DNA of 64,000 bases from an uncultured cyanobacterium (GCA_963718615.1 OY970368.1:1920001-1984000), one strand, 5' to 3'. Shown: positions 41,419 through 61,928, counted from the first letter of the stretch. Numbers and translations are program-made. Notes: a model not told the origin generated them from the letters alone.

Positions 41419-41447
41419 TATACGGTGTAACCCTAGCTAGCTATGCA
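41419..41447 (-). promoter_or_regulatory. Candidate alternative-sigma promoter TGCATA-N17-CGTATA
   Basis: About 35 nt upstream of the TPR-CHAT #1 start; the motif recurs across the island. Confidence 0.65.
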
Positions 41448-41473
41448 ATCTGGAAAGATAGAAGAGTCTGTAT

Positions 41474-41971
41474 TTAGGACAAATTCTCCTCATCCACAAG
41501 CTCCAAAACTCGCTGATATAGCTCTGTTGCTATCCAAAAACCAGCTTGATGGACTAACGCATCCAGCAAGGGTTTTACTTTTACAATAAGTCCTCGATTC
41601 TTTGCCTCAACCAATACCCCCAAAATGCCTGTAAAGCGAAGGTTCAATCGAGCTGCGACCAGGCGTCCCCGATGCTCATCCATCAAGAGTTGCTCAGCCT
41701 GAACTTCGACGGCCAAGGCGATCGCTTCTGCTTCTCCCAGATCCAACTCATGACTCAACACGTTAACCAAAGTGCGATCTTTGACGGAATGAGTTGTAAT
41801 CCAGTCAAACGTTTGCACTTCTACTGACCCTGCCACTGGAAAATTTGGGTTGGTTAATTCTCGATAAACAGCCTCAGGAATCAGAATTGTTCCATAGAGA
41901 TCTCGCAAAAGATATAGGTGAGCAATTGCCGCTAAGTTATTAATGGGGGATGTATCACTAACTACAATCAC
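41474..41971 (-). CDS. PIN-domain toxin (DUF3368-like)
   Basis: MIVVSDTSP, IPEAVYREL, LDLGEAEAI, LMDEHRGR, GILGVL. Confidence 0.88.
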   Translation of the reverse strand: MIVVSDTSPINNLAAIAHLYLLRDLYGTILIPEAVYRELTNPNFPVAGSVEVQTFDWITTHSVKDRTLVNVLSHELDLGEAEAIALAVEVQAEQLLMDEHRGRLVAARLNLRFTGILGVLVEAKNRGLIVKVKPLLDALVHQAGFWIATELYQRVLELVDEENLS

Positions 41972-42213
41972 AATCGACCCATCTCTCGCAAATTATTCAA
42001 ATCCTGTTCAAAATCTTCAACTCCGTAGTGAATCGGGATCTGACGACTGGCTAGCAGGTGCTGAAACATCACACGATGCATGCTGGCAAAGCGGCTAGCT
42101 TGGGCCAGCGTCAGCTTGTCTTTTTGAAATAGCATGACTGCGATCTCTTGACGCATTTCACTGGGAGTCATCCGAGCGACAGTCAGAATTTCGCTGGGAA
42201 TTAGAACACTCAT
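41968..42213 (-). CDS. UPF0175-family antitoxin-like protein
   Basis: 81 aa, IAVMLFQKDKLTLAQAS HTH-like segment; 4-nt overlap with the PIN gene. Confidence 0.85.
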   Translation of the reverse strand: MSVLIPSEILTVARMTPSEMRQEIAVMLFQKDKLTLAQASRFASMHRVMFQHLLASRQIPIHYGVEDFEQDLNNLREMGRL

Positions 42214-42263
42214 ATCTCACCTCCTGATCTATAACCTAGTCTAACGAAGTTTATGTCTAGCGC

Positions 42264-45200
42264 CTACAGCCCATTGCCAATCAAAATAAACGGAGCCCAA
42301 TGGAAAGGGTGTTTGGGATCAGTGCGTCCTGGAGTCGATCGCCCTGAGACAGAGGTTGGAACGATGGAGGCCCGGAACTTAGTCAAGCGAGTATTGCTAT
42401 CTTCGTTGTATAGTAAGCTAAGCTGAGCCTGCCGCAGAGCTTCGGCTTTAGTGAGTTCGCCGGAGGCCAGCAGCTCGTAGAAGCGTTGCATCAGTAGACT
42501 CGTGCTGTCGTCATTGACAGACCAAAGCGAGGCAATGACAGTTTTGGCACGACTGGCTTTGAGGAAATAGGAGCTCAGTCCTGCGATTTCTGTGCCGTCA
42601 TTGGCTTCACCTCCGAGGGCGGTTTGGCAGGCGGAGAGGACAACGAGATGGAGGTTGCTGAGACGCTCATGGAGGGTGTCGATTTCGGGGATTTTGAGAC
42701 GACTACCATCGCCCAGCACAATGTATGACTCCTGGGGTCGGCCCGGTGTAAAGGCTGCGTGGGTGGCGATGTGGAGAATGCGATGGCCAAGGAGGTTTTT
42801 CTCCAGTTGTTGGCGGGTGAAGTCTTGGTTGAGGTAGGTTTGGCCGGGGTAGATGCCGGTGGGGTCGTTGGGGGCTTGGCGGACGATGCGATCGAGTTCG
42901 TCTTCCACCGCAGGGAGAGGATCGAAGCCAGGGACCGCTTGGCTGAGGCCTAGGCCCAGAACATTGGCTTGGTTGACGGTGCCAAGGGTGTCTTCGGCAT
43001 CGGTGAGGCTGGGTGTGATGACGCTGGAGAGGGTATAGCGTTCGATCAGATACTGTTGGCCATTGAACAGGGCGGCCATGGGGATGTAGCGGGTGACGCG
43101 ATCGTTGACGAAGATCAGGTGTTTGGTTTTGCTCTGTTGCAGGGCGGATTCGAGGGGTTTGATCAGCCAGTCGTGGAGTTTTTGGCTGGTGGTTTGGAGG
43201 GCTTGGAGGTCGTTGCCGGATTGGAGTTGTTCGCGGAACTGTTGGACGGTTTTGGCTAATTCTGCTTGGGTGACGGAAACTTCGATGCTGCCCGCAGCGC
43301 CGGGGACGGCGTAGAGGAGCCAGAGTTTTTGGTCGGTGATGAAGGGATAGATTAAAACTGCATCTGGATTGGCTTTGAGCAGCTTTTCGGCTTCGCCGTT
43401 GAGGTTGTCGGGGTTTTGGAAGATGTCGTCGTCGTGGCGATTTTTGCGAACGTCGGTCTTGAAGGTTTCGACGCTTTGGGTGTACTGAGCCCTCAAGGTA
43501 CCCGACTGTGAAAACAATTGGTCTAACTCGCCACAGTTGGTTTGTTTGCATTCGGTGAGTTTTTTGCCAAAGTCAATGAGGTTGCCGTGGGCGTTGATGA
43601 CGGGTTGTTCGGCGTCGTTGTAGAGGAGTTCTGTGCCGGTCCAGGTGGCGCGGGTGTTGGTGAATTCGCGGAGTTCGGCGAGTTTGAGGAGGTCGAGGAC
43701 TTGTTGGGCTTCGCCGATGCGGCCTTGGCTGAGGAGGAGGTCGGCGAGGGTGCGGTAGGTGTCGGAGATGGAGTTGGTGTAGGATTCTTGGATTTCGCGT
43801 TCAAGGCGGGTGAGGTTGCCGCGAATGTTTTCGTAGGTGTTGATGGCTTGTTTGTAGAAGACGATCGCCAGTTCTGGCTGTTGTTGCTGAATTTGGAGGG
43901 CTCCGAGGTGGGCGAGGGTTTGGGCTTGGGTGGGTCGATCGCCGACTTCCTGGGCAAGGGCTAGGGATTGCTGCAAGGTGGTTTGGGCATCAGCGGTTTG
44001 GTTGAGTTGGGTTTGGGCTTGGCCGATGAGGCTTTGGGTGTGAGCCATTTCTCGTTTTGCGGAAAGTTTTTGGTCAACAGCGAGGGCTTGTTGGAAGAAG
44101 TCTAGGGCTTTTTCGGGTTGGGATTGGGCTAGGTAAACCTGGCCGATGCCGCTGAGAATGTTGCCTTCGCGGCTGAAGGCTCCGTTGGTTTGGGTGATGG
44201 TGAGGGCTTGTTGATAGTAGGCGAGGGCTTGCTGATAGTAGGATGGGTCTTTGGTGGTTTTGCCTTGGATGATATAGGCGCTTGCGATGGCAGTGATTAA
44301 CTCAGCTTCTAGTCCTTGCGCTTTTAATTTTCGAGCTAATGCGAGGGCTTGGTCATATTTATCTAGAGCGCGCTGAAACTGGCCTAGTTTGAGATAGACG
44401 GTGGCAGTTCCTCTTGCAGATTGGATAATTTCTTGTTGATCTCCAACTGTATCGAAGAGTTCTTCTGCTTGTTGACCATATTGAAGTGCAGTGGAATAAT
44501 CTCCTTGTTCAAAATAGCGTGCACTTAGATTGAGGTGTACAACTGCTTGGCCCGCAAGATCTTGATATTCATAATAAATTTTGAGGGCTTGTTGAGAGAA
44601 GCTTTCTGCTTTTACATACTCACCTTGAGCGCTGTAAATTGAACCAATATTATTTAAGTAAATTCCTATCGTTCGCTTAGCATAGTTTTGACCTTCTACA
44701 AGGAGCTTCTGAAGAAAGATTTTCTGAACTGTCTGATCTTCAGAATCTCCACAAAAAACTGAATAATCAGAAAGGTATTTTGAATATTCACTCTTCATTT
44801 CTTGACACCATAGCTTTATATTGCTTGAAATTAATCCTTTTTCAAAAAAATCGTACTCTTGTTGTTTATATTTAATTAATTCATGAAAGATAGACAAGGC
44901 TTTTTCATATTGGCCTTGCTTGTCGTAAATAAAGGCTATATTATTCTGTATGACCTGTGCGACTTCAAAGTGATTCGACTGAAGAGCGACTGATAGAGCT
45001 TGCTCGTAAATCAATAGAGATTGATGATAATCACCCTGATCCGAGTAGATTGCCCCGATCTGAGCAGAAGCCAGGAGTTTTTTTCCAAGAGATATCTTAT
45101 GCTGATACGTACTTAATGCATTGTTTACTAGACGCAATGATCTTTCATATTCTCCACGAAAACTGTAAATACTGGCAATTTCAAGTAATGTAGAAAACTC

Positions 45201-46451
45201 ATTTTCGACGTTTTCATCAGCCATCTTAGAGTCTATTTTGCGTAAACTTTGGGCAATATCTAGCATCTTTTGTGATTTTTCTAAAGATTGATCGTACTGT
45301 CCAAGTTGCCTCAGCCTAGTTGCCCATCCAAAGTAAATTGAGATTTCTAGATCAAGAACTTCATTCTCATCATTTTTGTTTCCAGAAGCTTTTGCTGCTT
45401 CTAGTATTTGAGGCAAAATTTCGACTGAATTTTCGTATCTATCGAGTAAGTTGTACACATTTATTAGGTGATAGCACGCAATAAAGATTGATCTATTTAC
45501 GAGGCGATTATAAATTAATTGTTCTTCTGTTGAGAGGCTGAAGAGAAATTTTCTATAAAATTCTAAGGCTTTTTGATCAGCTTCAATCGCTAACTCATAT
45601 TTTTGCTTTTGTTGATAGATTTCACCTAGTGCACTCCAAGCTGAAGCAACCTTCATGGGTCTATTAAGCTCTTGAAAGATTGCGAGAGCTTGCTGATAGT
45701 AATCAATCGCTTTGTCGTATTGCTCTAGTGCAGAGTAAGCCTCAGCCATACTGTCAAAGGAATTAGCAACCCCCATAGGTTGATTGAGTTCTTGAAAGAT
45801 TGTGAGAGCTTGCTGATAATAATCAATAGATTTGTCATATTGCTCTAGTGCAGAGTAAGCCTCAGCTCCACTAAAGAAAGAATTAGCAGCTTCAATAGGT
45901 TGATTGAGTTCTTGAAAAATCTCAAGAGCTTGCTGAAAGTAAGTAATAGCTTTGTCATATTGCCCTAACGCAACGTAAGTCTGAGCGATCTGATAGGAAA
46001 CATTAGCTTCCCATGAGCGCAATGGGGGCAAATTCAATTCTTGCGTAATCACAAGCCCCTGCTGATAAAACTCCAACGCTTGCCCATGCTCCCCCAAGTG
46101 AGAATAAACCCTACCTATTCCAAAAAGAGTCCCAGCTTCACCAGCCCGATTAGCTTTGCCAAGCTCCGAATCATCGCCCCCACCCCGCCGAAAAATCCCC
46201 AAAGCCCGCTCAAACCTCTCCCTCGCCTGCCGAAACACCTCCCCCGCCTCCTCAACCTTCCCCTGCCCCTGCAACTGCTCCCCCTGCTCCCGCAACTGCC
46301 CCCCCTCCTCAAGCAACCGCTTCCCAGCCTCCAGCCCCTCCGCCGCCGTCTGCGCCAGCACCCCCCTCTCCGGCACCCCCAACCCCGCCGTCACCCCCAA
46401 CCCCAAACAAGTCAACCCCAGCAACGCCCCAAATCCAGATTGCAACCTCAT
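42264..46451 (-). CDS. Exported TPR-CHAT protease #2
   Basis: Signal peptide ending VLAQ, TPR array, HIATHA and LSACQTA dyad, C-terminal HPFHWAPFILIGNGL. Confidence 0.92.
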   Translation of the reverse strand: MRLQSGFGALLGLTCLGLGVTAGLGVPERGVLAQTAAEGLEAGKRLLEEGGQLREQGEQLQGQGKVEEAGEVFRQARERFERALGIFRRGGGDDSELGKANRAGEAGTLFGIGRVYSHLGEHGQALEFYQQGLVITQELNLPPLRSWEANVSYQIAQTYVALGQYDKAITYFQQALEIFQELNQPIEAANSFFSGAEAYSALEQYDKSIDYYQQALTIFQELNQPMGVANSFDSMAEAYSALEQYDKAIDYYQQALAIFQELNRPMKVASAWSALGEIYQQKQKYELAIEADQKALEFYRKFLFSLSTEEQLIYNRLVNRSIFIACYHLINVYNLLDRYENSVEILPQILEAAKASGNKNDENEVLDLEISIYFGWATRLRQLGQYDQSLEKSQKMLDIAQSLRKIDSKMADENVENEFSTLLEIASIYSFRGEYERSLRLVNNALSTYQHKISLGKKLLASAQIGAIYSDQGDYHQSLLIYEQALSVALQSNHFEVAQVIQNNIAFIYDKQGQYEKALSIFHELIKYKQQEYDFFEKGLISSNIKLWCQEMKSEYSKYLSDYSVFCGDSEDQTVQKIFLQKLLVEGQNYAKRTIGIYLNNIGSIYSAQGEYVKAESFSQQALKIYYEYQDLAGQAVVHLNLSARYFEQGDYSTALQYGQQAEELFDTVGDQQEIIQSARGTATVYLKLGQFQRALDKYDQALALARKLKAQGLEAELITAIASAYIIQGKTTKDPSYYQQALAYYQQALTITQTNGAFSREGNILSGIGQVYLAQSQPEKALDFFQQALAVDQKLSAKREMAHTQSLIGQAQTQLNQTADAQTTLQQSLALAQEVGDRPTQAQTLAHLGALQIQQQQPELAIVFYKQAINTYENIRGNLTRLEREIQESYTNSISDTYRTLADLLLSQGRIGEAQQVLDLLKLAELREFTNTRATWTGTELLYNDAEQPVINAHGNLIDFGKKLTECKQTNCGELDQLFSQSGTLRAQYTQSVETFKTDVRKNRHDDDIFQNPDNLNGEAEKLLKANPDAVLIYPFITDQKLWLLYAVPGAAGSIEVSVTQAELAKTVQQFREQLQSGNDLQALQTTSQKLHDWLIKPLESALQQSKTKHLIFVNDRVTRYIPMAALFNGQQYLIERYTLSSVITPSLTDAEDTLGTVNQANVLGLGLSQAVPGFDPLPAVEDELDRIVRQAPNDPTGIYPGQTYLNQDFTRQQLEKNLLGHRILHIATHAAFTPGRPQESYIVLGDGSRLKIPEIDTLHERLSNLHLVVLSACQTALGGEANDGTEIAGLSSYFLKASRAKTVIASLWSVNDDSTSLLMQRFYELLASGELTKAEALRQAQLSLLYNEDSNTRLTKFRASIVPTSVSGRSTPGRTDPKHPFHWAPFILIGNGL
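43731..44221. repeat. ~490-bp near-identical direct repeat, copy 2
   Basis: Matches 39017-39507. Confidence 0.9.
45661..46020. repeat. Three 120-bp tandem units (recent TPR expansion)
   Basis: Units starting 45661, 45781 and 45901 share TTGAAA.AT...GAGAGCTTGCTGA...TTGTC.TATTGC...; each encodes a QY.KAI.YYQQAL.IFQELN.P-like repeat. Confidence 0.85.
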
Positions 46452-46484
46452 GTCGCTTCAGCCCCTATCGTGGTGTACAACATT

Positions 46485-46513
46485 TATACGAATTAGCCCC
46501 AGCCCGTTATGCA
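46485..46513 (-). promoter_or_regulatory. Candidate promoter TGCATA-N17-CGTATA
   Basis: Upstream of TPR-CHAT #2. Both boxes are identical to 41419-41447 while the spacer has diverged. Confidence 0.65.
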
Positions 46514-46699: not shown

Positions 46700-46728
46700 T
46701 GCATACCTAAATTGCTGATGAATAGATA
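46700..46728 (+). promoter_or_regulatory. Candidate promoter TGCATA-N17-TAGATA
   Basis: Upstream of the sigma-like gene; divergent partner of 46485-46513. Confidence 0.55.
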
Positions 46729-46858
46729 TATTTCTGTAATCGTATAAAGCTCATATTGTATAGAGATTATAGAGACTCCATTTCCCCCCTTCAAACCCTG
46801 TAGAATCGCTCTCAACCCGCATTCCTCAACCCTCATCCCCACCCTATCCCCGTTCGCC

Positions 46859-48244
46859 ATGTCAACCCATCACCAATACTGGACCCTGATCAGACTCGCG
46901 GCCAACGGCACAGGCCAGCCCCACGAACTCCCCCAAGCCAAAGCACTGCTCCGACAGCTCTGCCCCCAGGCCGAACCCGATGAAGACGTGGGCGATCGCT
47001 CCCTCCAGCGACAACTCCATGCAGCGCTCAAAGAAGCGCTTAAAACCGCCTGCTCAGACCCAGATAGCCCAGACCTCGGCCTCGCCTTCCATAGCCCCCC
47101 AAGTCAATGCTTCCGGTGCTATATCTCCCATCAAGCATTGAAAGTATGCCGAGATCTGGTGAAGCAATTTGGCGCAAACCACGGCTTCACCCTGACCGAT
47201 CTCCTGCCCATAGTGCTCAACGACGACGGCAAACCCCTCACGGGATCCTATCGACCCCTGAGCCATAAAATCCTGAGCAAATTCGATCCCCATAGCGCCA
47301 GCCTCAGCACCTGGGCCACCCGACTCATCCGCTCCAGCGAGGATTTAAACACATTTCTCAAAGAGCACGACATTCTGCTGATCAGCGACTGGGCCTTACT
47401 CAACAGTGCCAATCCAACAAAACTCACCAAAGCCCTGGGGGACTTTCATCTGCTCAGCGCCCCAGAAATCGAGCAATCCCAGCAGCTCCTAGCTGCCTAC
47501 CACCAAGTCTATCGGCAAGAGCGGATCCTGAAGGGCGATAAAGGCCGCTGCGAAGATCCCACCCCAGACCAATGCGAAGCCATTCGTCAGCACCTGCCAA
47601 ACCGCGCCATCACCGCCATAGAAGTTTTTCAGCAACTGCGCCGCTTGGCCAAGCGGCTACGGGACTATGATCTAGAGCGCTATCACGGGCAACCAGGAAA
47701 TACAGTTGAGTCCATTATTGAGACTCTTGCCCCTTCTCCTGCCCCAGAGGCCGAGCCAGAGGCGGATTTACCCTGGGCTCGGCTGACCGAAATTTATCAA
47801 GCTGAGTTTAACGCATGTCTCACCCAGGCCGTAAAGGACGTAATTGAGCAACGGCTACAGACGCTCAAGCCCCAGCAGCGGCAGAATTATCTGCAAGCCT
47901 TGCGATTCTTCTATTGTGAGGGACTCAAAATGGGTGAGATTGCACCTTGTATTGGTCTGGAAAAACAGTATCAGGTGACTCGGTTACTGAAACTGAAACC
48001 CTTTCGAGCGGAAATTCGCCATCGGGCGATCGCCTGCCTGCAACTCACGTTACGCCAACAGTTCACCGCATTACTGACTCCGGATCACCTTGTCCAACTC
48101 GATAACAATCTCGAACATCATCTGGGTCCGGAGATTGATGTCATCATTGAAACAGAGGTAAACCAGGCTCAAAACCGCAGACAGCATCGCACAAAATGCA
48201 ATCGTTTAGCCGAAGAAATTTGCCAAATTCTACATCATTTTTAG
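46859..48244 (+). CDS. Atypical sigma-70-like/HTH transcription regulator
   Basis: Region-2-like KFDPHSASLSTWATRLIR and C-terminal region-4-like HTH (LRFFYCEGLKMGEIAPCIGLEKQYQVTRLL); upstream of a DUF1822-like gene. Confidence 0.65.
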   Translation: MSTHHQYWTLIRLAANGTGQPHELPQAKALLRQLCPQAEPDEDVGDRSLQRQLHAALKEALKTACSDPDSPDLGLAFHSPPSQCFRCYISHQALKVCRDLVKQFGANHGFTLTDLLPIVLNDDGKPLTGSYRPLSHKILSKFDPHSASLSTWATRLIRSSEDLNTFLKEHDILLISDWALLNSANPTKLTKALGDFHLLSAPEIEQSQQLLAAYHQVYRQERILKGDKGRCEDPTPDQCEAIRQHLPNRAITAIEVFQQLRRLAKRLRDYDLERYHGQPGNTVESIIETLAPSPAPEAEPEADLPWARLTEIYQAEFNACLTQAVKDVIEQRLQTLKPQQRQNYLQALRFFYCEGLKMGEIAPCIGLEKQYQVTRLLKLKPFRAEIRHRAIACLQLTLRQQFTALLTPDHLVQLDNNLEHHLGPEIDVIIETEVNQAQNRRQHRTKCNRLAEEICQILHHF

Positions 48245-49724: not shown

Positions 49725-49753
49725 TGCATAGGCGGAGTGCCTTCTAAAAGACA
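49725..49753 (+). promoter_or_regulatory. Candidate promoter TGCATA-N17-AAGACA
   Basis: 40 nt upstream of the CHAT-CHASE2 ATG; weaker -10-like box. Confidence 0.45.
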
Positions 49754-49793
49754 TATTCAGGTATCCCTGATTCCTTTGCATCTTTCATTTCCT

Positions 49794-52166: not shown

Positions 52167-52909
52167 AATTCAATGCATTTATGCTCATGGTGCCGGTTTA
52201 TTTCATGGTGAGTGTTCTGAGCCCAGGGGTGACAGTGGCGCAGGGTCAGCCTCAAGGCCGGTCGAGTCGGCTCGGTTGGGGCGAATGGTTAGCCCAACGC
52301 TTTAAGCCTAACCCTCCTTTACCTAAGAGTCCTGGTGTAACAAGGCCAGTGGAAAGGCTCTGTTTGCTGGCTCCGAATCACGAGTATCAAGACCAGGGAA
52401 ACCCCATTGAATCTAGACTTTGGCAGGATCCGGTGTTTTTTTGGACAGGCTCTGTGGCGAAGGTTGGGGTGCGGCAGGCGGGTAGTGAGGCGTTGCTCTG
52501 GACTGTCCCGGTGCAGTTGGATCCGCAGGCAGAGGTGCAGTCGCTTCGCTATGCTGGGCCGCGTCTCGAACCGGGGATGACCTATGAATGGGGGATATTT
52601 CTGTCTGCTGCGGATACGCAACCTCAGATTTTTCGAACGTTTCAGGTGATGGAGCGGGCTGAGCGGGGGCCGGTGGTTAGGGCTTGGTTGCGGGAGGAGA
52701 TTGCACTTCGTCAGACGGGGGCTTCGCCGCAGAATCGGTTGGAGCGACGGCTGGATTTTTTGTTGGAGCGGGAGCTGTTTGCTGATTTTTATCAGGAGTT
52801 GTTTTTTGGGGCTGTGCGGGGGCAGTTGCAGAGGGGAGAACAGGAGATTGTCCAAGGCATACTACAGCAATTCTGTCTTCCTCAAACTCAAATTCAAGGA
52901 TCAAAGTAA
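52163..52909 (+). CDS. Exported DUF928-like protein
   Basis: Signal peptide ending TVAQ, LCLLAP, P.FFW, LEPGMTYEWGI; 4-nt overlap with the CHASE2 gene. Confidence 0.65.
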   Translation: MKFNAFMLMVPVYFMVSVLSPGVTVAQGQPQGRSSRLGWGEWLAQRFKPNPPLPKSPGVTRPVERLCLLAPNHEYQDQGNPIESRLWQDPVFFWTGSVAKVGVRQAGSEALLWTVPVQLDPQAEVQSLRYAGPRLEPGMTYEWGIFLSAADTQPQIFRTFQVMERAERGPVVRAWLREEIALRQTGASPQNRLERRLDFLLERELFADFYQELFFGAVRGQLQRGEQEIVQGILQQFCLPQTQIQGSK

Positions 52910-52966: not shown

Positions 52967-55900
52967 ATGACTCAGGGGACAAGCATGAAAATAGTTTTTT
53001 TAGGTTCGATAGCAGCAATAATTGTTTTGTTTCTGGCCATTGGTTTAGAGGGAAATGATGGAGTAGCTTGGGCTATAAAGCCAGCCATAGAAAGTAAAAT
53101 ATTGGCACAACAATCTCAAAAAAATCAGGCAGATGAGTTATTACAGTTGGGGATTGAGCAAGCTAATCGTAATCAGTTGCGAGAAGCATTACAGAGTTGG
53201 AAACAGGCGCTAGAACTTTATCGTCAAATCAGCGATCGCCAAGGCGAGGCAAGACTATTGGGTAACCTAGGACATGTATATCTGAGCTTTGATGAATATG
53301 AGGACGCGATCTACCTATATTATCAATCTCTGCACATCTGGCGTGAAATCCGCGATAGCCAAGCTGAAGCAAAAGTGCTGAATCATCTAGGTCTTGCATA
53401 CCGTGGATTAGGAGAATATGAAGGGGCGATTCGTTCCTATCAAAAATCTCTAAAAATCTCGCGTGAAAGCCGCGATCGCCAGAGCGAAATAATGACTTTA
53501 GGTGACTTACGAGCGAGCTACGACGACTTAGATCAGTACGAAAGAACGACTAATTTGCGTCAGCAACCACTGACAGCCAACCGTAAGCTCATTGATCTTT
53601 TTGGTGAAGGGGTTTCTTCGGGTGACTTGTCACCTGTATATAACAATTTAGAAGAATATAAGCAGGCGCTTGAGCTTCATCAAAAATCCTTGGTAATTGC
53701 CAATGAAATCCGCGATCGCCCGCTCCAAGCTAGAGCCTTGAGACATTTAGGGAGTATTCATCTGAGATTAGGCGAATACGAACAGGCAATCAATTTGCAT
53801 CAACAATCTCTAGAGATTGCACGTGAAACTCGCGATCGTCAACTTGAAGCCAGATTGTTGGGGCATTTAGGTAATGTTTATCTGAGTTTAGGTGAATATG
53901 AACGAGTAATTAATTTGCATCAGCAATCGCTAAAGATCGCACGTGAAACTCACGATCGCAAACTTGAAGCCAGAGCCCTGATTGGGTTCGGCAATGCCTA
54001 CTTTTATACCTGTCAAGCCCAGAATGATTCAAGTCAGTGTAAGCTTGCATTCGACCTCTACCAGCAATCTCTGACGATTGCCCAGGAAATTCACGATCGC
54101 CAAGGTCAAGCTGCTGCTTGGAATAATTTGGCAAATTCCTCCCTGCACTTGGGTCAAAATAAACCTGCGATCGACTTTCTTCAACAATCCCTAGAGATTG
54201 CGCGTGAAATTAACGATCGCCAAATTGAAGCAGATTCCCTACACAGCTTGGGTCTTGCCTATGCCAATCAGAAAGATCACACTACGGCTCTCAGCCACTT
54301 TCAACAGGCTCTGATGCTGTTCAAAACCATCGGTGCCCGTGAAGGAGAAGGACTGACCCTCAGCGATCTGGGACGCACCTTCAATGATCTCAATCGCCCT
54401 CAACTGGCCATCATCTTCTACAAGGCATCTGTCAATGTTCGCGAGGCCATCCGAGGGGATATCCAAGGGCTCTCCCTGGAAGAACAACAGTCCTATACCA
54501 ACACCATTGCCGATAGCTATCGCGCCCTAGCAGACCTGCTTCTGCAACAAAATCGTATCCCTGAGGCTCAACGTGTTCTCGACCTACTTAAACTCCAAGA
54601 ACTCGATGATTACTTCCAAGGCATCCAACGCAGTGCCGACAGCCAAACCGGCGTAGGTTCCTCGAAAGCCGAACAAGATATCCTCAATCTCTACATCAAC
54701 CACATTCTTGCCGCCGAAGAACTCGCCAGCCTCACCAAGCGCCCCCCCAAAGACCTCAGCAACCCAGAACGTCAACGTCTGGAAGTACTCCAAGCTGAAC
54801 AAGGCCAAATTTCTCGCGACTTTTCCCAATTTCTCGAACGCGAAGATGTCACCACTGCCCTCAAAGCCCTTAACGCCCACTCAGAAGCCCGAGAAGCCCT
54901 CGAACCTAGACATTTCAAACGACTCAAAGACGACCTGGCTAAACTGCCCCAGCGCAGCGCTCTGCTTTATCCGTTGATTCTGCGCGATCGCCTCGAACTT
55001 GTCCTTGTCTTACCCAACCTAGACCCTGTCCATGTCTCCGTCTCCGTTAGCGCTGAGGAGCTCAACCAACTTATTGTTGCCTTTAGCCAAGACCTCAGCC
55101 GCCCCAATAGCAACCCCCTGCCCCCTGCCCAACAGCTTTACCGTTTGCTAATCAAGCCCCTTGAGCCAGCCCTCAGTGGAGCCCAAGTTACCCACTTATT
55201 CTACGCCCCCGACGGAGCCTTGCGCTATATTCCCCTCGCTGCCCTCCACGATGGGAATGGCCCTAATAATGGGCAATGGTTAACCGAGCGATTCACCCTC
55301 AGCAACATCACCGCTGCTTCTCTCACCGACTTTGCGAGTAACCCCGATCGCAACCTTCGCCTCTTTGCAGGGGCCTGTGCCCAATGCAGCTTTAGTTTCG
55401 AGATCAACGGACGTCCCTACCACTTTCGTGACCTACCCGCGACCCAAACCGAAGTCGAAACCCTAGCCCAAGCCTTTCGTGAGAAAACTGTCCTACTCAA
55501 CCGTGAATTTAGCCCCGCCCAGCTCAAACTCAATTTGGGCTACTACAACTTACTCCACCTTGCCACCCATGGGGCTTTTGTTGAGGGAGACCCAAGGGAA
55601 TCCTTCATTGTGTTTGGAGATGGCAGCCGCGCTAGCCTACGCGAAATCCGCGAAACTTGGGATTTGAGTCGTCAGGAACTGGTTGTGCTCAGTGCCTGCC
55701 AAACGGCTGTGGGGGGATCGCAATTGGGCAATGGGGTGGAGATTTTGGGATTAGGCTATCAAATGCAAGCTTCTGGGGCCAAGGCAACTTTGTCGTCCCT
55801 CTGGCTTGTTAGCGATACAGGAACCCAACGGTTGATGAATCAGTTTTATGCAGCTTTGTTGCAGGGAGATCGCCCCCTCACCAAACCCCAAGCCCTACAA

Positions 55901-56062
55901 CAAGCTCAACGAGCCTTGATCACTGGCAAGTTTGAGGCTGGCCATGATGAGGAACGCGCTTCCGTGGTTGGGGTGGGCGATCGTTCCAGCCAATCAAAGG
56001 AGAACAACCTCAGCCACCCCTACTACTGGGCACCGTTTATCTTGATTGGTAATGGGCTTTAG
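52967..56062 (+). CDS. Exported TPR-CHAT protease #3
   Basis: Hydrophobic N-terminus, 40-aa TPRs, HLATHG and LSACQTA, C-terminal HPYYWAPFILIGNGL; RBS GGAG. Confidence 0.92.
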   Translation: MTQGTSMKIVFLGSIAAIIVLFLAIGLEGNDGVAWAIKPAIESKILAQQSQKNQADELLQLGIEQANRNQLREALQSWKQALELYRQISDRQGEARLLGNLGHVYLSFDEYEDAIYLYYQSLHIWREIRDSQAEAKVLNHLGLAYRGLGEYEGAIRSYQKSLKISRESRDRQSEIMTLGDLRASYDDLDQYERTTNLRQQPLTANRKLIDLFGEGVSSGDLSPVYNNLEEYKQALELHQKSLVIANEIRDRPLQARALRHLGSIHLRLGEYEQAINLHQQSLEIARETRDRQLEARLLGHLGNVYLSLGEYERVINLHQQSLKIARETHDRKLEARALIGFGNAYFYTCQAQNDSSQCKLAFDLYQQSLTIAQEIHDRQGQAAAWNNLANSSLHLGQNKPAIDFLQQSLEIAREINDRQIEADSLHSLGLAYANQKDHTTALSHFQQALMLFKTIGAREGEGLTLSDLGRTFNDLNRPQLAIIFYKASVNVREAIRGDIQGLSLEEQQSYTNTIADSYRALADLLLQQNRIPEAQRVLDLLKLQELDDYFQGIQRSADSQTGVGSSKAEQDILNLYINHILAAEELASLTKRPPKDLSNPERQRLEVLQAEQGQISRDFSQFLEREDVTTALKALNAHSEAREALEPRHFKRLKDDLAKLPQRSALLYPLILRDRLELVLVLPNLDPVHVSVSVSAEELNQLIVAFSQDLSRPNSNPLPPAQQLYRLLIKPLEPALSGAQVTHLFYAPDGALRYIPLAALHDGNGPNNGQWLTERFTLSNITAASLTDFASNPDRNLRLFAGACAQCSFSFEINGRPYHFRDLPATQTEVETLAQAFREKTVLLNREFSPAQLKLNLGYYNLLHLATHGAFVEGDPRESFIVFGDGSRASLREIRETWDLSRQELVVLSACQTAVGGSQLGNGVEILGLGYQMQASGAKATLSSLWLVSDTGTQRLMNQFYAALLQGDRPLTKPQALQQAQRALITGKFEAGHDEERASVVGVGDRSSQSKENNLSHPYYWAPFILIGNGL

Positions 56063-56102: not shown

Positions 56103-57068
56103 TTAAAACCACGGTATCCTGAACTTGTTTCGGACTCGCCCAGCTCCTGACTGCGCTCGCGACTTCAATTCCTCATCTAGATTCTTAATTACATCCCGAT
56201 CCTCGGGCTCTGCCTTTGGCACGTAGGGTTCTTTGAGAGGTTCTGCTACAGCATTTTCTTTTTGTAGTTGCAGATCAACTCCCTTCTTCTGGGCCTCACT
56301 CTCAAAAGTACCAATCGGAATTCCATAGTTAAACCCTGACTTAAACAAGGCAGATATCTCTTCTGCTGATTCATGTTCGAGATTCAACCTTTGTGATAGG
56401 CCGATTGGATCCTCAGCTCCACCGAGTCCATGAATGCCGATCACGCGTCCCGAAGAGTCGAAGATGCCACTACCACTCATGCCTGCTCGTGTCACATTGT
56501 CGTATGAAACCTCGTAGCCGCCTATAGGAGACTCCAGAAATCCGGATATATTACCGCCGGTGAACTGTCGAATTATTTGCGGATCAGTCGTTTTCATCTC
56601 AGCCATTGCAATAATCGCGTCAGGTTTTGGCCATCCAGAGATAAAGATAGACTGCCCTTCTTTCAGCCTTGCCACACTAATTTTGGCAGTAGGGTATTTT
56701 TCTTTTGTAGTAAATTTAGCAATCGCAAGATCGACTGCTGACAAAAACTTGATCTCCTCATAACTCACTTCATAGGTTTTTCGATCAGGAGTCCTCAATT
56801 GATAATCCTGTCGATGACGCAGCACATGCTCATTGCTTAAGACGAAATACTGATCTCCGTCTTTAGCAATAATGACACCTGAGCCTTGATCTTCTTTACG
56901 ATCTTTTCCCCGGATCAGAACGGTAACCTCGCGGGCAATATCATTGACTTCTTCACCGCTGAGAGCTTGTGCTCTTTGAGGAAGGGTGACAATCAGCGTA
57001 CTGGCGATCGCAACTCCAAAGACGGTCGTGGAAGCATACTTGAATAAACTCATACCTATTGACCTCAA
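56103..57068 (-). CDS. Exported trypsin-like serine protease
   Basis: Signal peptide ending AQA; triad motifs LSNEHV, DLAI, GMSGSG; VIGIHG. Confidence 0.88.
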   Translation of the reverse strand: MRSIGMSLFKYASTTVFGVAIASTLIVTLPQRAQALSGEEVNDIAREVTVLIRGKDRKEDQGSGVIIAKDGDQYFVLSNEHVLRHRQDYQLRTPDRKTYEVSYEEIKFLSAVDLAIAKFTTKEKYPTAKISVARLKEGQSIFISGWPKPDAIIAMAEMKTTDPQIIRQFTGGNISGFLESPIGGYEVSYDNVTRAGMSGSGIFDSSGRVIGIHGLGGAEDPIGLSQRLNLEHESAEEISALFKSGFNYGIPIGTFESEAQKKGVDLQLQKENAVAEPLKEPYVPKAEPEDRDVIKNLDEELKSRAQSGAGRVRNKFRIPWF

Positions 57069-57201: not shown

Positions 57202-57229
57202 TATAAGGTTGAACCTCAAAGTTTATGCA
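57202..57229 (-). promoter_or_regulatory. Candidate promoter TGCATA-N16-CTTATA
   Basis: In the intergenic region upstream of the trypsin gene, on the coding strand. Confidence 0.5.
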
Positions 57230-57292: not shown

Positions 57293-59527
57293 TCAGGGCT
57301 CACCAACCTCAAGTATCACTGAAAACACAGCAAGTGAATCAGTACTGATTGTCTTTCGAGTATCAGCACGTTGTACTCCGGCCCGAGTACTCACATCACT
57401 TACAATGTGGTCGACTAGATCGACCACCGTATCTTCACTTTCACCTGAAGAACGAGTTGTTTCTTCATTAAAACTAAGGTGACTTCCTCTTTGTAGGCCT
57501 CGACCCCTTGCAATTGTTTTCATCGCTTGTAATGCTTCTTTGAGTGGTTTTGTACTTGTAATCACCAATAATTCAGTGAAGCCAGCAGGGCCAACTAATC
57601 TCAGCTCAACAGGGACTTTACCTCCTTTCTTCTCGACCAGTGCAGCGGCTTCCGGCGCAGCCCAATCGACTGGATGTAGGAGATCCAGAGATCCATCATC
57701 AGAAATGACCATGACCCCCATAAACAGGTTTTCAATTGGGTCGTTATTTTTAACTGTTACATCAATTAAAGTCCCAGGCTTATAGGGCTTGGAAAAATCA
57801 ATTTGTCGACTGATCACATCACCCGAGCCTGCGGAACGACTCCCCAGGGTTCCCCTAGGACCATCTCCCTCCTTCACAGCAATGTCTACATCAACCTTTA
57901 CATTGTGAGACGCATCATTGAGCAACTCCTTCAAAATTTTCCCCGCTAATAGCATCTTCAGCCGAGGCCGTAACCGCCCAATCGTCGCCTCGATCGGCTC
58001 ATTGGGACCACCCAAGAACGATCGCGTCACAGGCGTTGCACTCTGACTCAATAGGCCCACACTGCCTGGGGGAACAGAAATGTCAATATTACGTTGCTGG
58101 GCTTGCTTGACCGCTTCTGGTGTTAGACGACCCAATAAAATATCGACGGGTTGAGATTGATCAACAATGACAGGCTCAATCCGGTTGATTTTGCGCAGGG
58201 CCTGCTGCGCTGTAGCTAAATTCCTACCCAAAGAAGGGTCTAACCCAACCTTGAGACTTAGGTTAGCAGGAATAATGCGCAGCTTTTCTCGCATGAGGCT
58301 ACCTTCACCCACCGTTTGACTCGGAGCCTCCACCAACCGACCATAGCCCTTCAGACCCAGTCGGCTAGTTTGTTCAACTTCCCCTAAAGGATTGCCATTT
58401 TCATCAATTAAGTCAAACTTTGCTCCCTTCTCAAAGGATTTGAGATTTCCAGAAGAGACTCCTCCCAGCCAAAACTCAACATTTTGCCCATCGACTTTCT
58501 GAAGAACGGCATCTGCTGAAGGCCGTTGGTCAGAAAGAAAATAGATAGGTTGTAACTCAAAGGCAGGATTTGCGGTAAAGGAGAGAGGATTCTGGGTTAG
58601 TCCAGAGGACTCCGCTACATCGCGGGTAATGAGTGCTAGCCGGTTGAAACTTTGTTGTAGCGATTCGCTGCTGGGTAACTGCCAAAGATAGCGTGTTAGC
58701 AGATACGTGAATGCTCCAGCATAGAAATCTCCAAAGGGCATATCAGCCGCAAGTTGATTTGCTTCCGCTGATCCTAGGGCCATCCCTCTTGCAATCCCCT
58801 TGACCCGTTCTGCTTGGAACTGTTCCGGCGAAAGATTGAGTTTGGTTAACCACTGTTCTTGAAAATTGAGTTCCTGTTCACTGGGTTTGGCCTCTGCTGC
58901 CCCAGATCTCGGTTCTATATTGCGAAACACTAAGTTTCCCCTGGTTCCCCCCCCTGAGTGACAGCTATCGAGCACCATCGTGAAGAAATCAGTATTTACG
59001 GCTCGACTGAGTAAGAAAAGTGTCTTACCCATGATGTCGTTGGCAATATTTCCCGATGCAAGACGAGTATCTGAGGGTACCAACGTTCCGTTGAGACCAC
59101 CCTCTGCTGTTGGGATAGGATTGGGATCAACAACGCGAGAACCGTGACCAGAGTAGTGGAAGACCACAATATCACCGGGTGCTGCTTGTTTAATTAGGTG
59201 CTCGTCAAAAGCCGTTAAAATATTTTCGCGGGTTGGCTTTTGTTGCGCTTCATCGCTGAGGATTAGAATGTCCTTAGGATTAAAGCCATAGCGATGCACC
59301 AAAAGTTGGCGCTGCATTTCCACATCCGTTAGGCAGCCTTGGAGATTGCGGATAGAGTCTTTGTACTGGTTTACACCAACTAACAAAGCCAGCTTTCGCC
59401 CCGTAGGCTGAGCCAAAACGCGACCATAGTGTTCGCTTTGTTGAAAGAAGTTTGCTTCATGTAGGCCCAATGCTGCCAGGGTGGAACCAGCAATCTGGAG
59501 AAAGTGGCGACGCTTTATCGAGGTCAT
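57293..59527 (-). CDS. Caspase-family (C14) protease with twin-arginine signal and C-terminal beta-rich domain
   Basis: KLALLVGVNQY, LQGCLTDV, HYSGHG, LDSCHSG. Start MTSIKRRHFLQ has RBS AGGAG, so ATG at 59527 is preferred over 59632. Confidence 0.9.
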   Translation of the reverse strand: MTSIKRRHFLQIAGSTLAALGLHEANFFQQSEHYGRVLAQPTGRKLALLVGVNQYKDSIRNLQGCLTDVEMQRQLLVHRYGFNPKDILILSDEAQQKPTRENILTAFDEHLIKQAAPGDIVVFHYSGHGSRVVDPNPIPTAEGGLNGTLVPSDTRLASGNIANDIMGKTLFLLSRAVNTDFFTMVLDSCHSGGGTRGNLVFRNIEPRSGAAEAKPSEQELNFQEQWLTKLNLSPEQFQAERVKGIARGMALGSAEANQLAADMPFGDFYAGAFTYLLTRYLWQLPSSESLQQSFNRLALITRDVAESSGLTQNPLSFTANPAFELQPIYFLSDQRPSADAVLQKVDGQNVEFWLGGVSSGNLKSFEKGAKFDLIDENGNPLGEVEQTSRLGLKGYGRLVEAPSQTVGEGSLMREKLRIIPANLSLKVGLDPSLGRNLATAQQALRKINRIEPVIVDQSQPVDILLGRLTPEAVKQAQQRNIDISVPPGSVGLLSQSATPVTRSFLGGPNEPIEATIGRLRPRLKMLLAGKILKELLNDASHNVKVDVDIAVKEGDGPRGTLGSRSAGSGDVISRQIDFSKPYKPGTLIDVTVKNNDPIENLFMGVMVISDDGSLDLLHPVDWAAPEAAALVEKKGGKVPVELRLVGPAGFTELLVITSTKPLKEALQAMKTIARGRGLQRGSHLSFNEETTRSSGESEDTVVDLVDHIVSDVSTRAGVQRADTRKTISTDSLAVFSVILEVGEP

Positions 59528-59625
59528 GGGGGAATGCTCCTGAGAATGACAAATGACATTTGCAAATAACGTTTGGTAGTGCGCCTTTCGCTCGTTATGG
59601 TTAGTCTCTTTTACAAGCAAAAGCA

Positions 59626-59654
59626 TATTCATCTGGACGTTCTAGAGATATGCA
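59626..59654 (-). promoter_or_regulatory. Candidate promoter TGCATA-N17-TGAATA
   Basis: About 100 nt upstream of the caspase ATG. Confidence 0.55.
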
Positions 59655-59731: not shown

Positions 59732-59760
59732 TGCATAACAGGACATGCCGTCTCCGTACG
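59732..59760 (+). promoter_or_regulatory. Candidate promoter TGCATA-N17-CGTACG
   Basis: 43 nt upstream of the cyclase ATG; divergent partner of 59626-59654. Confidence 0.6.
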
Positions 59761-59803: not shown

Positions 59804-60697
59804 ATGGCAGCTATCTATAACGATCAACAGAAGGGAGTGGGACGTCCCCTGGTAATTAGGTATCAGAAGTTACCTCACCAATCCTTCAATCGCCATTTTT
59901 GGTGCAATCTAGGCACGATTGCCCTCTCCATCTCCCTGCCTCAGCTCATTCCCCAAGGATTTCTAGGGTTGCCTGTTGCGATACAAAACTTCAGCAACCT
60001 GCTTCAGACGGTTCATCCCATGGTGTGGATGCTATCAGTGGTTCTGCTCGTTGCCCTGCCCCTTAATATTGCCCATCGACTACGCTGCCATCCTCTGACT
60101 TTGCCCGCTGCGATCGCCCCAGACCTCCAACCCATCTCCCATCCCATCGCCTATTCCTACGACCAAGTCACCGTCATGTTTGCCGATTTAGTTGGGTTTA
60201 CCCCGCTGTCGGCTCAAATGGCCCCAGACCAATTGTTTGAACTGCTCAACTTGATTTTTTCGACCTTTGATCAACTGGTCGATCACCATCAGCTTGAAAC
60301 CATCAAAACCGTTGGCGATGCCTATATGGTGGCGGGAGGGCTGCCGGGAACCCCGGAACAGCATGCAGATGCCATGGTGGCGTTAGCGTTGGATATGCAA
60401 GAGGCGATCGCCCAAATTCGTCAAATCACCGGTAAAAATCTCTATTTGCGGATTGGTATCCATACAGGGCCTGTGGTTGCTGGCGTCATAGGGTTGAAAA
60501 AGTTGAGCTATGACCTCTGGGGCGATACGGTGAATATTGCGAGCCGCATGGAGTCGCAGGGAATTGTTGGAGGGATTCAAATGAGTGAGCATACTTATCA
60601 GTTATTGCAAGGGTCTTATGGGGTGCGATCTCTAGGCTGTAAGGAAATTAAGGGGAAGGGAGAAATGCAAACCTATACCGTTAATCCCTATGTCTGA
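59804..60697 (+). CDS. Class III adenylate cyclase with short hydrophobic N-terminus
   Basis: FADLVGFT, IKTVGDAYM, RIGIHTGPV, YDLWGDTVNIASRMES; Lys/Asp specificity residues point to ATP. Confidence 0.9.
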   Translation: MAAIYNDQQKGVGRPLVIRYQKLPHQSFNRHFWCNLGTIALSISLPQLIPQGFLGLPVAIQNFSNLLQTVHPMVWMLSVVLLVALPLNIAHRLRCHPLTLPAAIAPDLQPISHPIAYSYDQVTVMFADLVGFTPLSAQMAPDQLFELLNLIFSTFDQLVDHHQLETIKTVGDAYMVAGGLPGTPEQHADAMVALALDMQEAIAQIRQITGKNLYLRIGIHTGPVVAGVIGLKKLSYDLWGDTVNIASRMESQGIVGGIQMSEHTYQLLQGSYGVRSLGCKEIKGKGEMQTYTVNPYV

Positions 60698-60729
60698 TTG
60701 CTTGGTTCCCAGGAAATACTCGGGTTTGC

Positions 60730-60766
60730 GGGGTCACTAAGCTATGACAGATAGCAGGGTGACCCC
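60730..60766. terminator. Hairpin between convergent cyclase and RTX genes
   Basis: GGGGTCAC...GCTAT-loop-ATAGC...GTGACCCC. Confidence 0.5.
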
Positions 60767-60789
60767 ACAGCGAGTAACCTCGATGAACC

Positions 60790-61560
60790 TTAAACAAAAT
60801 TAAAGTCTCGGGCAATGTCCACCGTTCCCCAATCCGCATCCTGAACAATGCCAATCAGCCAACCTTGGTAGTAAATGCCTGTATCATACGTTGAGCTACC
60901 AACATTGTAATTGCCCACACCCAGCGTATACAGGCTGGAATTACCCACGACTTCGATCCGGTCGGTGGAGTAGGGGTCAACGCCGCCACTATAGAACGGA
61001 TCCCAATCGACAATGATATCAACGCCTTCCCAGAGGCGGAGGGCAAAGGTATCTGAGCCCATGCCACCGACTAAGGTGTCGTTACCGTAGCCACCATTCA
61101 GATAGTCACGACCATTGCCGCCGATTAGATAGTCTTGACCATTATCGCCGTATAGACAGTCGTTGTCGTTGCCGCCGAAGAGCCAGTCATCGCCGCCGCC
61201 GCCAAACATCACGTCATTGCCATTTCCTCCGTAGAGCGTATCATTGCCGGGGCCAAGGCCAAGAAAGCCATCGCTGCCGCCAAACATCCAATCATCGCCA
61301 TCCCCTCCGTCTAGGAGGTCGTGACCATCACCGCCATCCATCCAGTCATTACCGGCATCACCGTAAAGATTATCTTCGCCGCTGCCACCGTAAATTGAAT
61401 CATGGCCGGAACCACCGAATGCAAGATCGTTACCGCCATTGCCAAAGATAGTGTCGTTGCCGCCATTACCGTAAAGCGTGTCATTTTGGGGGAACCAACC
61501 GAGAAAGCCGTCGCTGCCTTCTAGGGTATCTGCGCCAAAACCACCGTGATAAACTGCCAT
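60790..61560 (-). CDS. RTX (hemolysin-type) calcium-binding repeat protein
   Basis: Many GGxGxDxLx nonapeptides; RBS AGGAG. Confidence 0.9.
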   Translation of the reverse strand: MAVYHGGFGADTLEGSDGFLGWFPQNDTLYGNGGNDTIFGNGGNDLAFGGSGHDSIYGGSGEDNLYGDAGNDWMDGGDGHDLLDGGDGDDWMFGGSDGFLGLGPGNDTLYGGNGNDVMFGGGGDDWLFGGNDNDCLYGDNGQDYLIGGNGRDYLNGGYGNDTLVGGMGSDTFALRLWEGVDIIVDWDPFYSGGVDPYSTDRIEVVGNSSLYTLGVGNYNVGSSTYDTGIYYQGWLIGIVQDADWGTVDIARDFNFV

Positions 61561-61703
61561 CGGAAAACTCCTGATTTTTGTTGTGGATTGTTTGAGAATT
61601 CACAGCCGATCTCTTGATGTTGAAGATTGAGAAATTCAACAGTTAGAGAATGTTTCTAAAGGAGAGTGCTGGGTGAATAGGAGCTTGTTTGCTCTTGCTA
61701 TTC

Positions 61704-61732
61704 TGTACTTAGAGTTGTTGATTGGCTATGCA
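61704..61732 (-). promoter_or_regulatory. Candidate promoter TGCATA-N17-AGTACA
   Basis: Upstream of the RTX gene on its coding strand. Confidence 0.55.
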
Positions 61733-61900
61733 GTTTTAATCGATTTTTTATGATTCACTTTTTCTAAAAGACTTGCTGGCTGTAGCTTCTATGATTTTCA
61801 AGAGATAACGAATTCAAAATAGATCGAAGCCTAGGGAACTTTTGATGGGTAATTTTGTCTTTTTAGGGATTTGCGATCGCCCAAGAATTCTTCTGAAATC

Positions 61901-61928
61901 TGCATAGCTTCCCAAGGAACTACAGATA
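61901..61928 (+). promoter_or_regulatory. Candidate promoter TGCATA-N16-CAGATA
   Basis: 32 nt upstream of the ATG at 61961; divergent partner of 61704-61732. Confidence 0.5.

Follow-up and report, generated by a model that had tools for sequence, protein, structure and literature searches.

The closest described relatives of the system reported here are the EACC2-caspase neighbourhoods of Kaur, Iyer, Burroughs and Aravind (eLife 2021; PMC8195603), in which a sigma factor of the extracytoplasmic function (ECF) type and a DUF1822 protein accompany a protein that joins an N-terminal domain and a caspase/CHAT domain to CHASE2, and for which these authors suggested that activated proteases ultimately lead to the transcription of many genes through the sigma factor. 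Neither 'promoter' nor 'regulon' appears as a word in the main text of that paper (supplements not searched), and its passages on these neighbourhoods name no proposed targets, anti-sigma role or cut site. A 64,000-nucleotide stretch from an uncultured cyanobacterium (GCA_963718615.1 OY970368.1:1920001-1984000; the window, whose numbering is used below) holds two features of such neighbourhoods, namely adjacent sigma and DUF1822 genes and a CHAT protein with a C-terminal CHASE2 sensor. The first-pass annotation of the window had described nine copies of a bipartite motif, TGCATA with a looser second box 16-17 nt downstream, as an island-wide regulon read by the sigma-like product of 46859-48244. 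Our analysis indicates, on sequence grounds, that this motif is a real regulatory element, which very probably serves as promoter for a sigma subfamily not characterised so far; that the sigma in question is the dedicated, divergent sigma70-family factor encoded at 46859-48244 seems to us highly likely.

A second parallel is HetZ of Anabaena PCC 7120, which was shown in 2026 to be a sigma factor with the same promoter geometry and another promoter sequence (PMC13342950). According to that paper, sigma-HetZ is a divergent ECF-type sigma of cyanobacteria that carries insertions at the N-terminus, internally and at the C-terminus (i1, i2 and i3, around sigma2 and sigma4), and in our structure model extra segments lie at what appear to be these three places (PDB searches returned no HetZ chain for comparison). 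Its promoters are also bipartite, with a 16-17 nt spacer and a conserved A at -10, and the HetZ/PatU3/HetF trio shares with the present locus an adjacent soluble partner gene, a CHAT protease and an arginine of the partner lying ~140-150 residues from the C-terminus (PMC13342950, PMC9457339). However, the boxes differ (TGCATA/TA here vs. TCCGGA/TGnA for sigma-HetZ), HetZ helix residues R291, D294, Y295 and Q298 correspond by alignment to Y, T, R and K here, and sigma-HetZ serves a developmental core circuit whereas the present module is an accessory one with protease targets (PMC13342950). We rejected membership of the HetZ family, given that NF037963 matches three other genes of this genome but not 46859-48244 and that a full-length profile comparison (hhalign) gave a probability of 1.5% over 44 columns, with the helix-turn-helix (HTH) alone aligned.

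Outside cyanobacteria, DdvS/DdvA of Myxococcus xanthus resembles the locus in that a local island is under the control of an ECF sigma whose release involves a CHAT domain; DdvA, as reported, is an anti-sigma that spans the membrane, and its periplasmic TPR-CHAT has an incomplete active site (PMC11506125), whereas the candidate anti-sigma here is predicted to be soluble and the CHAT domain, in which both dyad motifs are present, belongs to another protein, the predicted membrane sensor. A DdvA-type anti-sigma was considered for DUF1822 and discarded, as the protein has no TPR or CHAT domain and is modelled as two soluble domains. Unlike the DdvS/DdvA island, no CRISPR or CBASS genes were found among the island proteins scanned. 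ECF54 of Actinobacteria similarly pairs an ECF sigma with subtilases and a TPR-CHAT protein, but it is actinobacterial, and DUF1822, CHASE2 and TGCATA do not figure in the supplement text examined (PMC7826278). A hormogonium promoter table contains 17 scattered TGCATA words at varied positions, none of them assigned there to such a motif (PMC6495340), and literature searches, which did not cover subscription journals and most supplements, failed to find this promoter.

In the window, all nine copies were recovered at the coordinates, strands and spacings given in the first-pass annotation, whose gene labels were also correct; the hexamer is preceded by T or C at every copy, and each of the three divergent gaps carries one outward-facing pair. 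A looser, post-hoc pattern yielded 13 non-genic island sites, comprising the nine together with 46719+, 68096-, 72858- and 72908+, the last three lying beyond the window and the last two forming a fourth divergent pair; all 13 stand upstream of a gene on its coding strand. The putative promoter copies are:

41419..41447, minus strand: TGCATA-N17-CGTATA before TPR-CHAT 1, predicted +1 near 41411
46485..46513, minus strand: copy before TPR-CHAT 2, predicted +1 near 46477
46700..46728, plus strand: autoregulatory copy before the sigma gene, predicted +1 near 46736
46719..46746, plus strand: second copy before the sigma gene, TGAATA-N16-CGTATA, overlapping the first and absent from the earlier list
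49725..49753, plus strand: copy before the CHAT-CHASE2 sensor gene, probably also serving the next two genes
57202..57229, minus strand: copy with N16 before the trypsin-like gene
59626..59654, minus strand: copy before the caspase gene
59732..59760, plus strand: copy before the adenylate/guanylate cyclase gene
61704..61732, minus strand: copy before the RTX-repeat gene
61901..61928, plus strand: copy with N16 before a gene for a 132-residue hypothetical protein
68096, minus strand (beyond the window, window numbering): site before a 1545-residue TPR-CHAT gene
72858, minus strand (beyond the window, window numbering): TGCATG variant before a TPR-CHAT gene split by IS1
72908, plus strand (beyond the window, window numbering): GGCATA variant before an S8 protease gene

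For the copies listed above without a start, +1 is predicted near 46754 (46719+), 49761 (49725+), 57194 (57229-), 59618 (59654-), 59768 (59732+), 61696 (61732-) and 61936 (61901+), and all predicted starts in the window carry a margin of 1-2 nt. No copy precedes a gene in the left 37 kb, as had been stated, the sole extra match (23426+) having a G before it and lying inside the open reading frame (ORF) 22277-24643. TGCATA-N18/19-DAYR gave 10 matches in the window vs. 2.13 expected (maximum of 6 in 100 shuffles), while genome-wide (6.1 Mb) the earlier pattern gave 81 matches, with 10 falling within 26.9 kb vs. 0.36 expected; outside the island, no 27-kb interval starting at a match had more than 3. 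As the pattern was derived from these very sites, the genome-wide concentration is a post-hoc figure. An independent test was therefore provided by a weight matrix trained on other loci only and scored on 4938 genes, which placed seven island genes in the top 92 (ranks 2, 4, 14, 29, 56, 81 and 92) and the remaining motif-bearing island genes at ranks 224, 250, 807 and 1079, but missed the 61901 site (rank 4414), probably because of an over-long ORF start. As had been cautioned, the two CHAT promoters are not independent, sharing 51% identity even without the hexamer; apart from them, the flanks of the nine window sites and of 68096 are 16-39% identical pairwise, so that the sites are not copies of one repeat. 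The second box is indeed loose, its window forms being CGTA, AGTA, CTTA, TAGA, AAGA, CAGA and TGAA.

Further support for the motif came from relatives of the sigma-like gene. Up to 20 kb was fetched around 53 family matches and, with seven near-duplicates and the window gene dropped, a de novo set of 45 was left (44 foreign loci and the second paralogue of this genome). The first-pass annotation had proposed comparing other loci with a shuffled background; so compared, TGCATA was the most enriched of all hexamers in the 300 nt upstream of family members, occurring in 22 of 45 (shuffle mean 4.1, maximum 11; antisense 5), and this was replicated in held-out, later loci with 33 of 61 (antisense 5, mean of shuffles 4.3). 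A TA begins 19 nt after the hexamer in 51 of 73 cases. The second box claimed earlier is real but had to be refined, its core being an A, mostly as part of TA, which follows the hexamer by 20-21 nt in the register of A-10 in sigma-HetZ promoters, with AGAnnTA in the relatives and CGTA-like variants in this island. When this conserved A is numbered -10, as in sigma-HetZ promoters, position -1 is a pyrimidine at 48 of 58 sites and +1 a purine at 51 of 58; a pyrimidine-purine (YR) step was present at 48 of 67 correctly spaced sites vs. 9 of 70 with wrong spacing, and in 22% of the 7845 -10-like words that stand alone. The signature extends to non-sigma genes of the same loci, where TA-spaced TGCATA accounted for 22 of 62 upstream vs. 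11 of 191 genic occurrences (P 3e-8). The targets in these loci include subtilases, an aspartyl protease and TPR and CHAT proteins, together with unrelated genes (NRPS, for non-ribosomal peptide synthetase, and ribosomal L21), some of which probably carry the site by chance; of 30 proteins scanned, 11 were without a Pfam match. Five sites, each showing the YR step, precede sigma, TPR, CHAT and S8 genes on pNPUN01 of Nostoc punctiforme and on a plasmid of Tolypothrix PCC 7601; in N. punctiforme NC_010631.1, starts are predicted near 107,964 (NPUN_RS34160), 110,999 (NPUN_RS34170) and 118,589 (NPUN_RS34195). Family members with a Pro helix yielded no motif, nine of nine lacking a bipartite site, and a C-to-T variant in some clade-B loci was not clean in that both forms occur.

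For the product of 46859-48244, 147 relatives were retrieved with E values up to 0.001, and those with a name are nearly all cyanobacterial 'hypothetical proteins'; the family occurs in 37 of 301 genomes of the phylum and on 19 plasmid records, as a patchy and often plasmid-borne accessory module. The structure model (mean predicted local distance difference test, pLDDT, 90.7) comprises an N-terminal extension, sigma2 (~46-171), an inserted helical domain (~175-279), a flexible linker, a sigma4 HTH and a C-terminal extension. Residues 46-171 superimpose on SigA domain 2 with Z 7.3 (<8), a root-mean-square deviation (rmsd) of 3.1 and 99 residues aligned; the region 4 HTH at ~358-383, with the helix KQYQVTRLL at 369-377, aligns with a DeoR-type HTH (E 0.024), and Atlas neighbours of the protein carry Sigma70_r4. 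No sequence relative was found in the PDB at E <0.02. Taken together, the evidence for sigma identity is consistent but weak.

The proposal that this protein reads the box, and thereby links otherwise unrelated genes, gains support from four sides: conservation among homologues, the start-site signature, enrichment in carrier genomes only and a change of box with sigma clade. For the phyletic counts, the clade-A pattern TGCATA-N14/15-AGANNTA was compared genome-wide with a wrong-spacing control (N11/12), which was added since a reversed-pattern control was judged weak; the genome of the window was left out and G035, a weak match, was counted as a non-carrier. Pattern and control stood at 265:98 in 20 carrier genomes (training sites included) and 86:27 in 14 held-out carriers, vs. 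99:113 in 36 non-carriers, which show no enrichment. Confinement of the enrichment to carriers makes a core sigma unlikely as the reader; DUF1822 is present in 74 of 80 of these genomes. With regard to clade, TGCATAAGT is the form in clade B, where the -10 flank is rich in pyrimidines, and a G four bases before TA separates the clades (31 of 39 vs. 0 of 18). Among 109 sigma upstream regions, hexamer position 3 of bipartite sites was C in 42, A in 0, T in 1 and G in 1 of those of 97 non-Val proteins (53 with none), vs. A in 5 and C in 0 of those of 12 Val proteins (7 with none), the clade with Val for Tyr371 using TGAATA. The TGAATA version exceeded its control in five Val-carrying genomes (39 vs. 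9) but not in five other carriers (54 vs. 50). In two genomes, G008 and G089, TGAATA sites cluster round the sigma genes (8 of 14 and 8 of 11) and precede TPR-CHAT and RTX genes, with 0 and 1 TGCATA sites, respectively; this is an independent island-wide regulon with an altered box. By eye, and anchored on the conserved Val373, Tyr371 aligns with E585 of sigma70, a residue reported to contact position -33, the third base of the -35 box (PMC2613000). The change of box with sigma clade supports direct reading, without proving the residue, and we infer from sequence that the 46859-48244 product reads the motif directly. Two further refinements followed: 1) the motif belongs to this sigma subfamily and not to sigma-DUF1822 loci at large, the sigma genes of the six other such loci of this genome having no upstream TGCATA; 2) 'island-wide' is apt here but is not a general rule, since in some genomes the sites are dispersed, being spread over many contigs in G002 (49), G178 (33) and G192 (21).

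How the sigma might be controlled is suggested by the genes at the core of the island:

46859..48244, plus strand: sigma70/ECF-like factor, 461 residues, preceded by its own motif copies
48475..49686, plus strand: DUF1822 protein (PF08852), candidate soluble anti-sigma, with no motif copy of its own
49737..52166, plus strand: CHAT-CHASE2 sensor-protease (PF12770 at 138-353, PF05226 at 419-723), start probably ATG 49794
52163..52909, plus strand: DUF928-like, probably exported protein with an N-terminal hydrophobic stretch, overlapping the sensor stop codon

Although Kaur et al. call DUF1822 a TPR protein in the passages concerned (PMC8195603), our model consists of a PD-(D/E)xK-like N domain, a linker and an Ig-like C domain, with the N domain matching PD-(D/E)xK nucleases at a best Z of 9.4 (rmsd 4.0, 134 aligned). 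Complex prediction for sigma and DUF1822 scored 0.72 vs. 0.00 for the best of three controls, on a scale whose mark was reached by 116 of 157 solved pairs and 2 of 215 mismatched pairs; runs shared at least 38% of contacts, partner pLDDT was at least 67, and the predicted contact is mainly between the sigma inserted domain (173-231) and the DUF1822 N domain. These predictions support binding of DUF1822 to the adjacent sigma. In addition, a low-confidence DUF1822 loop carries an Arg (R258 in the window protein) in 41 of 44 homologues, in one column in 36 of 44, about 145 residues from the C-terminus. In the HetZ system, PatU3 inhibits sigma-HetZ (PMC13342950) and, as stated in the sections on cleavage, is cut by HetF after R117, 141 residues from its end (PMC13342950, PMC9457339); among 20 PatU sequences, the 12 that matched the search pattern have an Arg-Ser 138-154 residues from the end. 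The sensor itself comprises a presumed EACC2-type N-terminal region, CHAT, CHASE2 and C-terminal hydrophobic helices, with a topology that we predict from the sequence; its CHAT has a His255/Cys299-type dyad with both motifs present (AGHS, NSCK). The Pfam and NCBIfam scans did not turn up an EACC2 model, about 120 residues preceding the CHAT domain of the sensor. Likewise, the DUF928-like protein had no Pfam match; Atlas neighbours carry PF06051 in 12-21% of members, and its recognition is below threshold.

Based on these features, we propose that region 4 of the sigma would read YTGCATA at -35, with (T)A at -11/-10 and a start ~10 nt after the conserved A, and that the factor would transcribe the gene that encodes it and the CHAT-CHASE2 sensor operon, together with genes for an RTX protein, a cyclase and a set of proteases (TPR-CHATs, caspase, trypsin and S8), most of them presumably exported; transcription of its own gene and of the sensor operon would hence create a positive feedback. 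The adjacent DUF1822 protein would hold the sigma inactive until an outside signal, sensed by CHASE2 and perhaps with the DUF928-like protein, activates the cytoplasmic CHAT, which would cut DUF1822 after the conserved Arg and free the sigma. As a whole, this account of promoter, reader, regulon and gating by DUF1822 is in our view the best explanation and a likely one. Judging from the modelled contact, DUF1822 is probably an inhibitor of the adjacent sigma, and for the sequence of CHASE2-CHAT activation, DUF1822 cleavage and sigma release, drawn by analogy, the chances may be about even. As to signal and purpose, we can only infer that a response to cell-surface damage, to predators or competitors, or extracellular protein turnover is most likely.

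A number of findings weigh against this explanation. With respect to the sigma, the TIGR02937 match (E 0.001, 18.7 bits) is below the cut-off of 42.9, and the fold matches, many of them to sigma chains in both lists, are weak (Foldseek E 0.021 and Z 7.3 at best). About half of the family members have no recognisable site within 300 nt; in the island, the exact YR step at the predicted register is present at only 5 of 13 sites, and the -10 boxes depart from the family AGAnnTA, with 3 genome-wide matches only. The clade-A pattern was not enriched in nine genomes with clade-B-type sigmas only (41:36), and related genomes in the phyletic counts are not independent. Many of the G008 and G089 sites precede duplicated genes, the link of Val to TGAATA comes from one clade (11 of 12 Val rows in one of our two trees, both quick ones) and thus represents one event, and since C at position 3 persists alongside Tyr, Phe, Asp, His or Ser, no simple recognition code exists. 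For DUF1822, the interface-conservation figure draws on the same alignments as the complex prediction, three Val-clade proteins have no loop Arg, and membership of the PatU family was rejected (hhalign probability 0.4%, E 0.17), making the cut-site parallel an analogy. The last two points bear on the alternative that promoter and reader are as proposed but DUF1822 is not cut, acting instead as adaptor, co-activator or nuclease-fold effector, or that the protease acts on itself or on the sigma. The nuclease-like N domain, the missing similarity to PatU, the three homologues devoid of the loop Arg, the autopeptidase activation put forward by Kaur et al. (PMC8195603) and the second sigma paralogue of this genome, which has no adjacent DUF1822, would all agree with it; on the other hand, the predicted sigma-DUF1822 contact passes its controls, the Arg loop is widely kept at a PatU3-like position and the sigma-DUF1822-sensor gene order is conserved in most loci, and we consider this alternative possible but unlikely.

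Other explanations concern the reader or the motif itself. The island sites might be read in trans by the paralogue G000:C1:5653055 or by one of the six other sigma-DUF1822 modules, with the local gene merely a target, as would suit the existence of that paralogue, the weak family-profile matches of four other DUF1822-linked sigmas and a CGTATA-type site beside one module (C1:2941804). We find this improbable, given that the sites are concentrated round the local sigma gene, that the other sigma genes of the genome all lack an upstream TGCATA and that QYQVTR, the helix usual at TGCATA loci, is present in the local protein, as opposed to PSNVSR in the paralogue. Still less probable is binding of the box by a core-genome sigma or a conventional transcription factor (HetZ, SigJ/SigF or an activator): the geometry equals that of sigma-HetZ promoters, hexamer bases 1, 3 and 6 match TCCGGA and three HetZ-type genes are present in the genome, but there is no enrichment in the 36 genomes without the family, many of which carry HetZ, the HetZ promoter TCCGGA-N16/17-TGnA is not enriched in the island (1 match vs. 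0.41 expected), the SigJ box is GGGaAtacT, and the motif is one-directional and shifts with sigma clade. Finally, a loose after-the-fact pattern inflated by paralogous CHAT promoters would be in keeping with the origin of the pattern in these sites, the kinship of the two CHAT promoters and the loose -10 box; yet chance or gene duplication of this sort is scarcely tenable against de novo discovery in other genomes, held-out replication, the spacing and start-site controls and the unrelated flanks of most sites. The promoter and its dedicated sigma thus remain our preferred reading. 

This reading matters as many cyanobacterial CHAT and caspase-like proteases have no known trigger or regulator: a module catalogued in 2021 becomes, through its promoter, a sigma-DUF1822-sensor regulon with named targets and predicted start sites, which is directly testable in laboratory strains, as a sigma with several textbook sites is found on N. 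punctiforme plasmid pNPUN01 and on a plasmid of Tolypothrix PCC 7601. Besides HetZ, a second family of cyanobacterial sigmas with inserted domains is thereby indicated, as is a natural change of -35 specificity, and the promoters may possibly serve as orthogonal, inducible elements for cyanobacterial engineering. A broader and rather doubtful speculation is that filamentous cyanobacteria hold a large family of plug-in, protease-gated sigma switches with their own diverging promoters (TGCATA, TGAATA, several -10 flanks), that this subfamily would release an arsenal of exported caspase-like proteases on an outside signal, that DUF1822 and PatU would be remote homologues cut at the same Arg loop, and that the HetF-PatU-HetZ heterocyst switch would be a domesticated member.

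The island extends from ~37.5 to 75.3 kb (about 38 kb). Its core of sigma, DUF1822, CHAT/CHASE2 and DUF928-like genes is accompanied by five genes for TPR-CHAT proteins, one of them split by IS1, and by one gene each for a caspase, a trypsin, an S8 protease, an RTX protein and a cyclase. Export is presumed for the protease targets because most of them begin with a hydrophobic stretch or a twin-Arg-like leader. Three ORFs have over-long starts that run into the motif, and their likely starts are 49794, 59527 and 61961. The remaining genes are:

37523..41392, minus strand: TPR-CHAT protease 1 with an N-terminal hydrophobic stretch, putative target
42264..46451, minus strand: TPR-CHAT protease 2, putative target
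52967..56062, plus strand: TPR-CHAT protease 3, with no site of its own, probably co-transcribed from 49725
56103..57068, minus strand: trypsin-like protease, putative target
57293..59632, minus strand: caspase-family (C14) protease with the twin-Arg-like leader RRHFL, start probably ATG 59527, putative target
59804..60697, plus strand: membrane-anchored class III nucleotide cyclase, putative target
60790..61560, minus strand: small RTX calcium-binding repeat protein, putative target
61961..62359, plus strand: 132-residue hypothetical protein with about 10 distant relatives, putative target
63451..64000, minus strand: 3' end of the 1545-residue TPR-CHAT gene whose promoter copy (68096-) lies outside the window

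Two further stretches inside the island are motif-free: a UPF0175 and DUF3368 gene pair at 41474-42213 (minus strand) between two TPR-CHAT genes, which resembles an antitoxin-toxin pair, and a PD-(D/E)XK_2 and DUF4351 gene at 62463-63476 (plus strand). The IS1 element that interrupts the fifth TPR-CHAT gene lies just past the window (L155:8767-9539).

Elsewhere in this genome, which has seven DUF1822 loci, the six further ones (C1 near 1753101, 2242813, 2162279, 2587524, 2940417 and 753711) each stand behind a sigma-like gene, and four of these six sigma-like genes weakly match the family profile; the CGTATA-type site mentioned above (2941804-) is located between such a sigma and its DUF1822. 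The second family member (G000:C1:5653055-5654488), with helix PSNVSR and no adjacent DUF1822, has a TGAATA-type candidate site and lies downstream of a co-directional EACC2/CHAT-type gene. YTGCATA-N16-CCTA(G/A)A occurs at four dispersed sites (G000:C1 558155+, 2410971-, 3186589+ and 5587937-), which precede genes for RTX-like or exported proteins; the pattern has 4 sites at spacing 16 and at most 1 at any other spacing from 10 to 21, and possibly constitutes a second sub-regulon. In other genomes, very divergent family members with no recognisable motif lie beside CHAT genes in the small genomes (1.7-2.7 Mb) of one family (L078, L079 and L080), and on pNPUN01 a lanthipeptide/NHLP bacteriocin cluster is found directly upstream of the sigma gene (L214:816-14220), where 254+ and 14821- resemble the motif. 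A published table of differences that set Tolypothrix PCC 7712 apart from PCC 7601 includes two that hit DUF1822 genes adjoining family sigmas (PMC9679502; CP063787, CP063788), a possible natural experiment.

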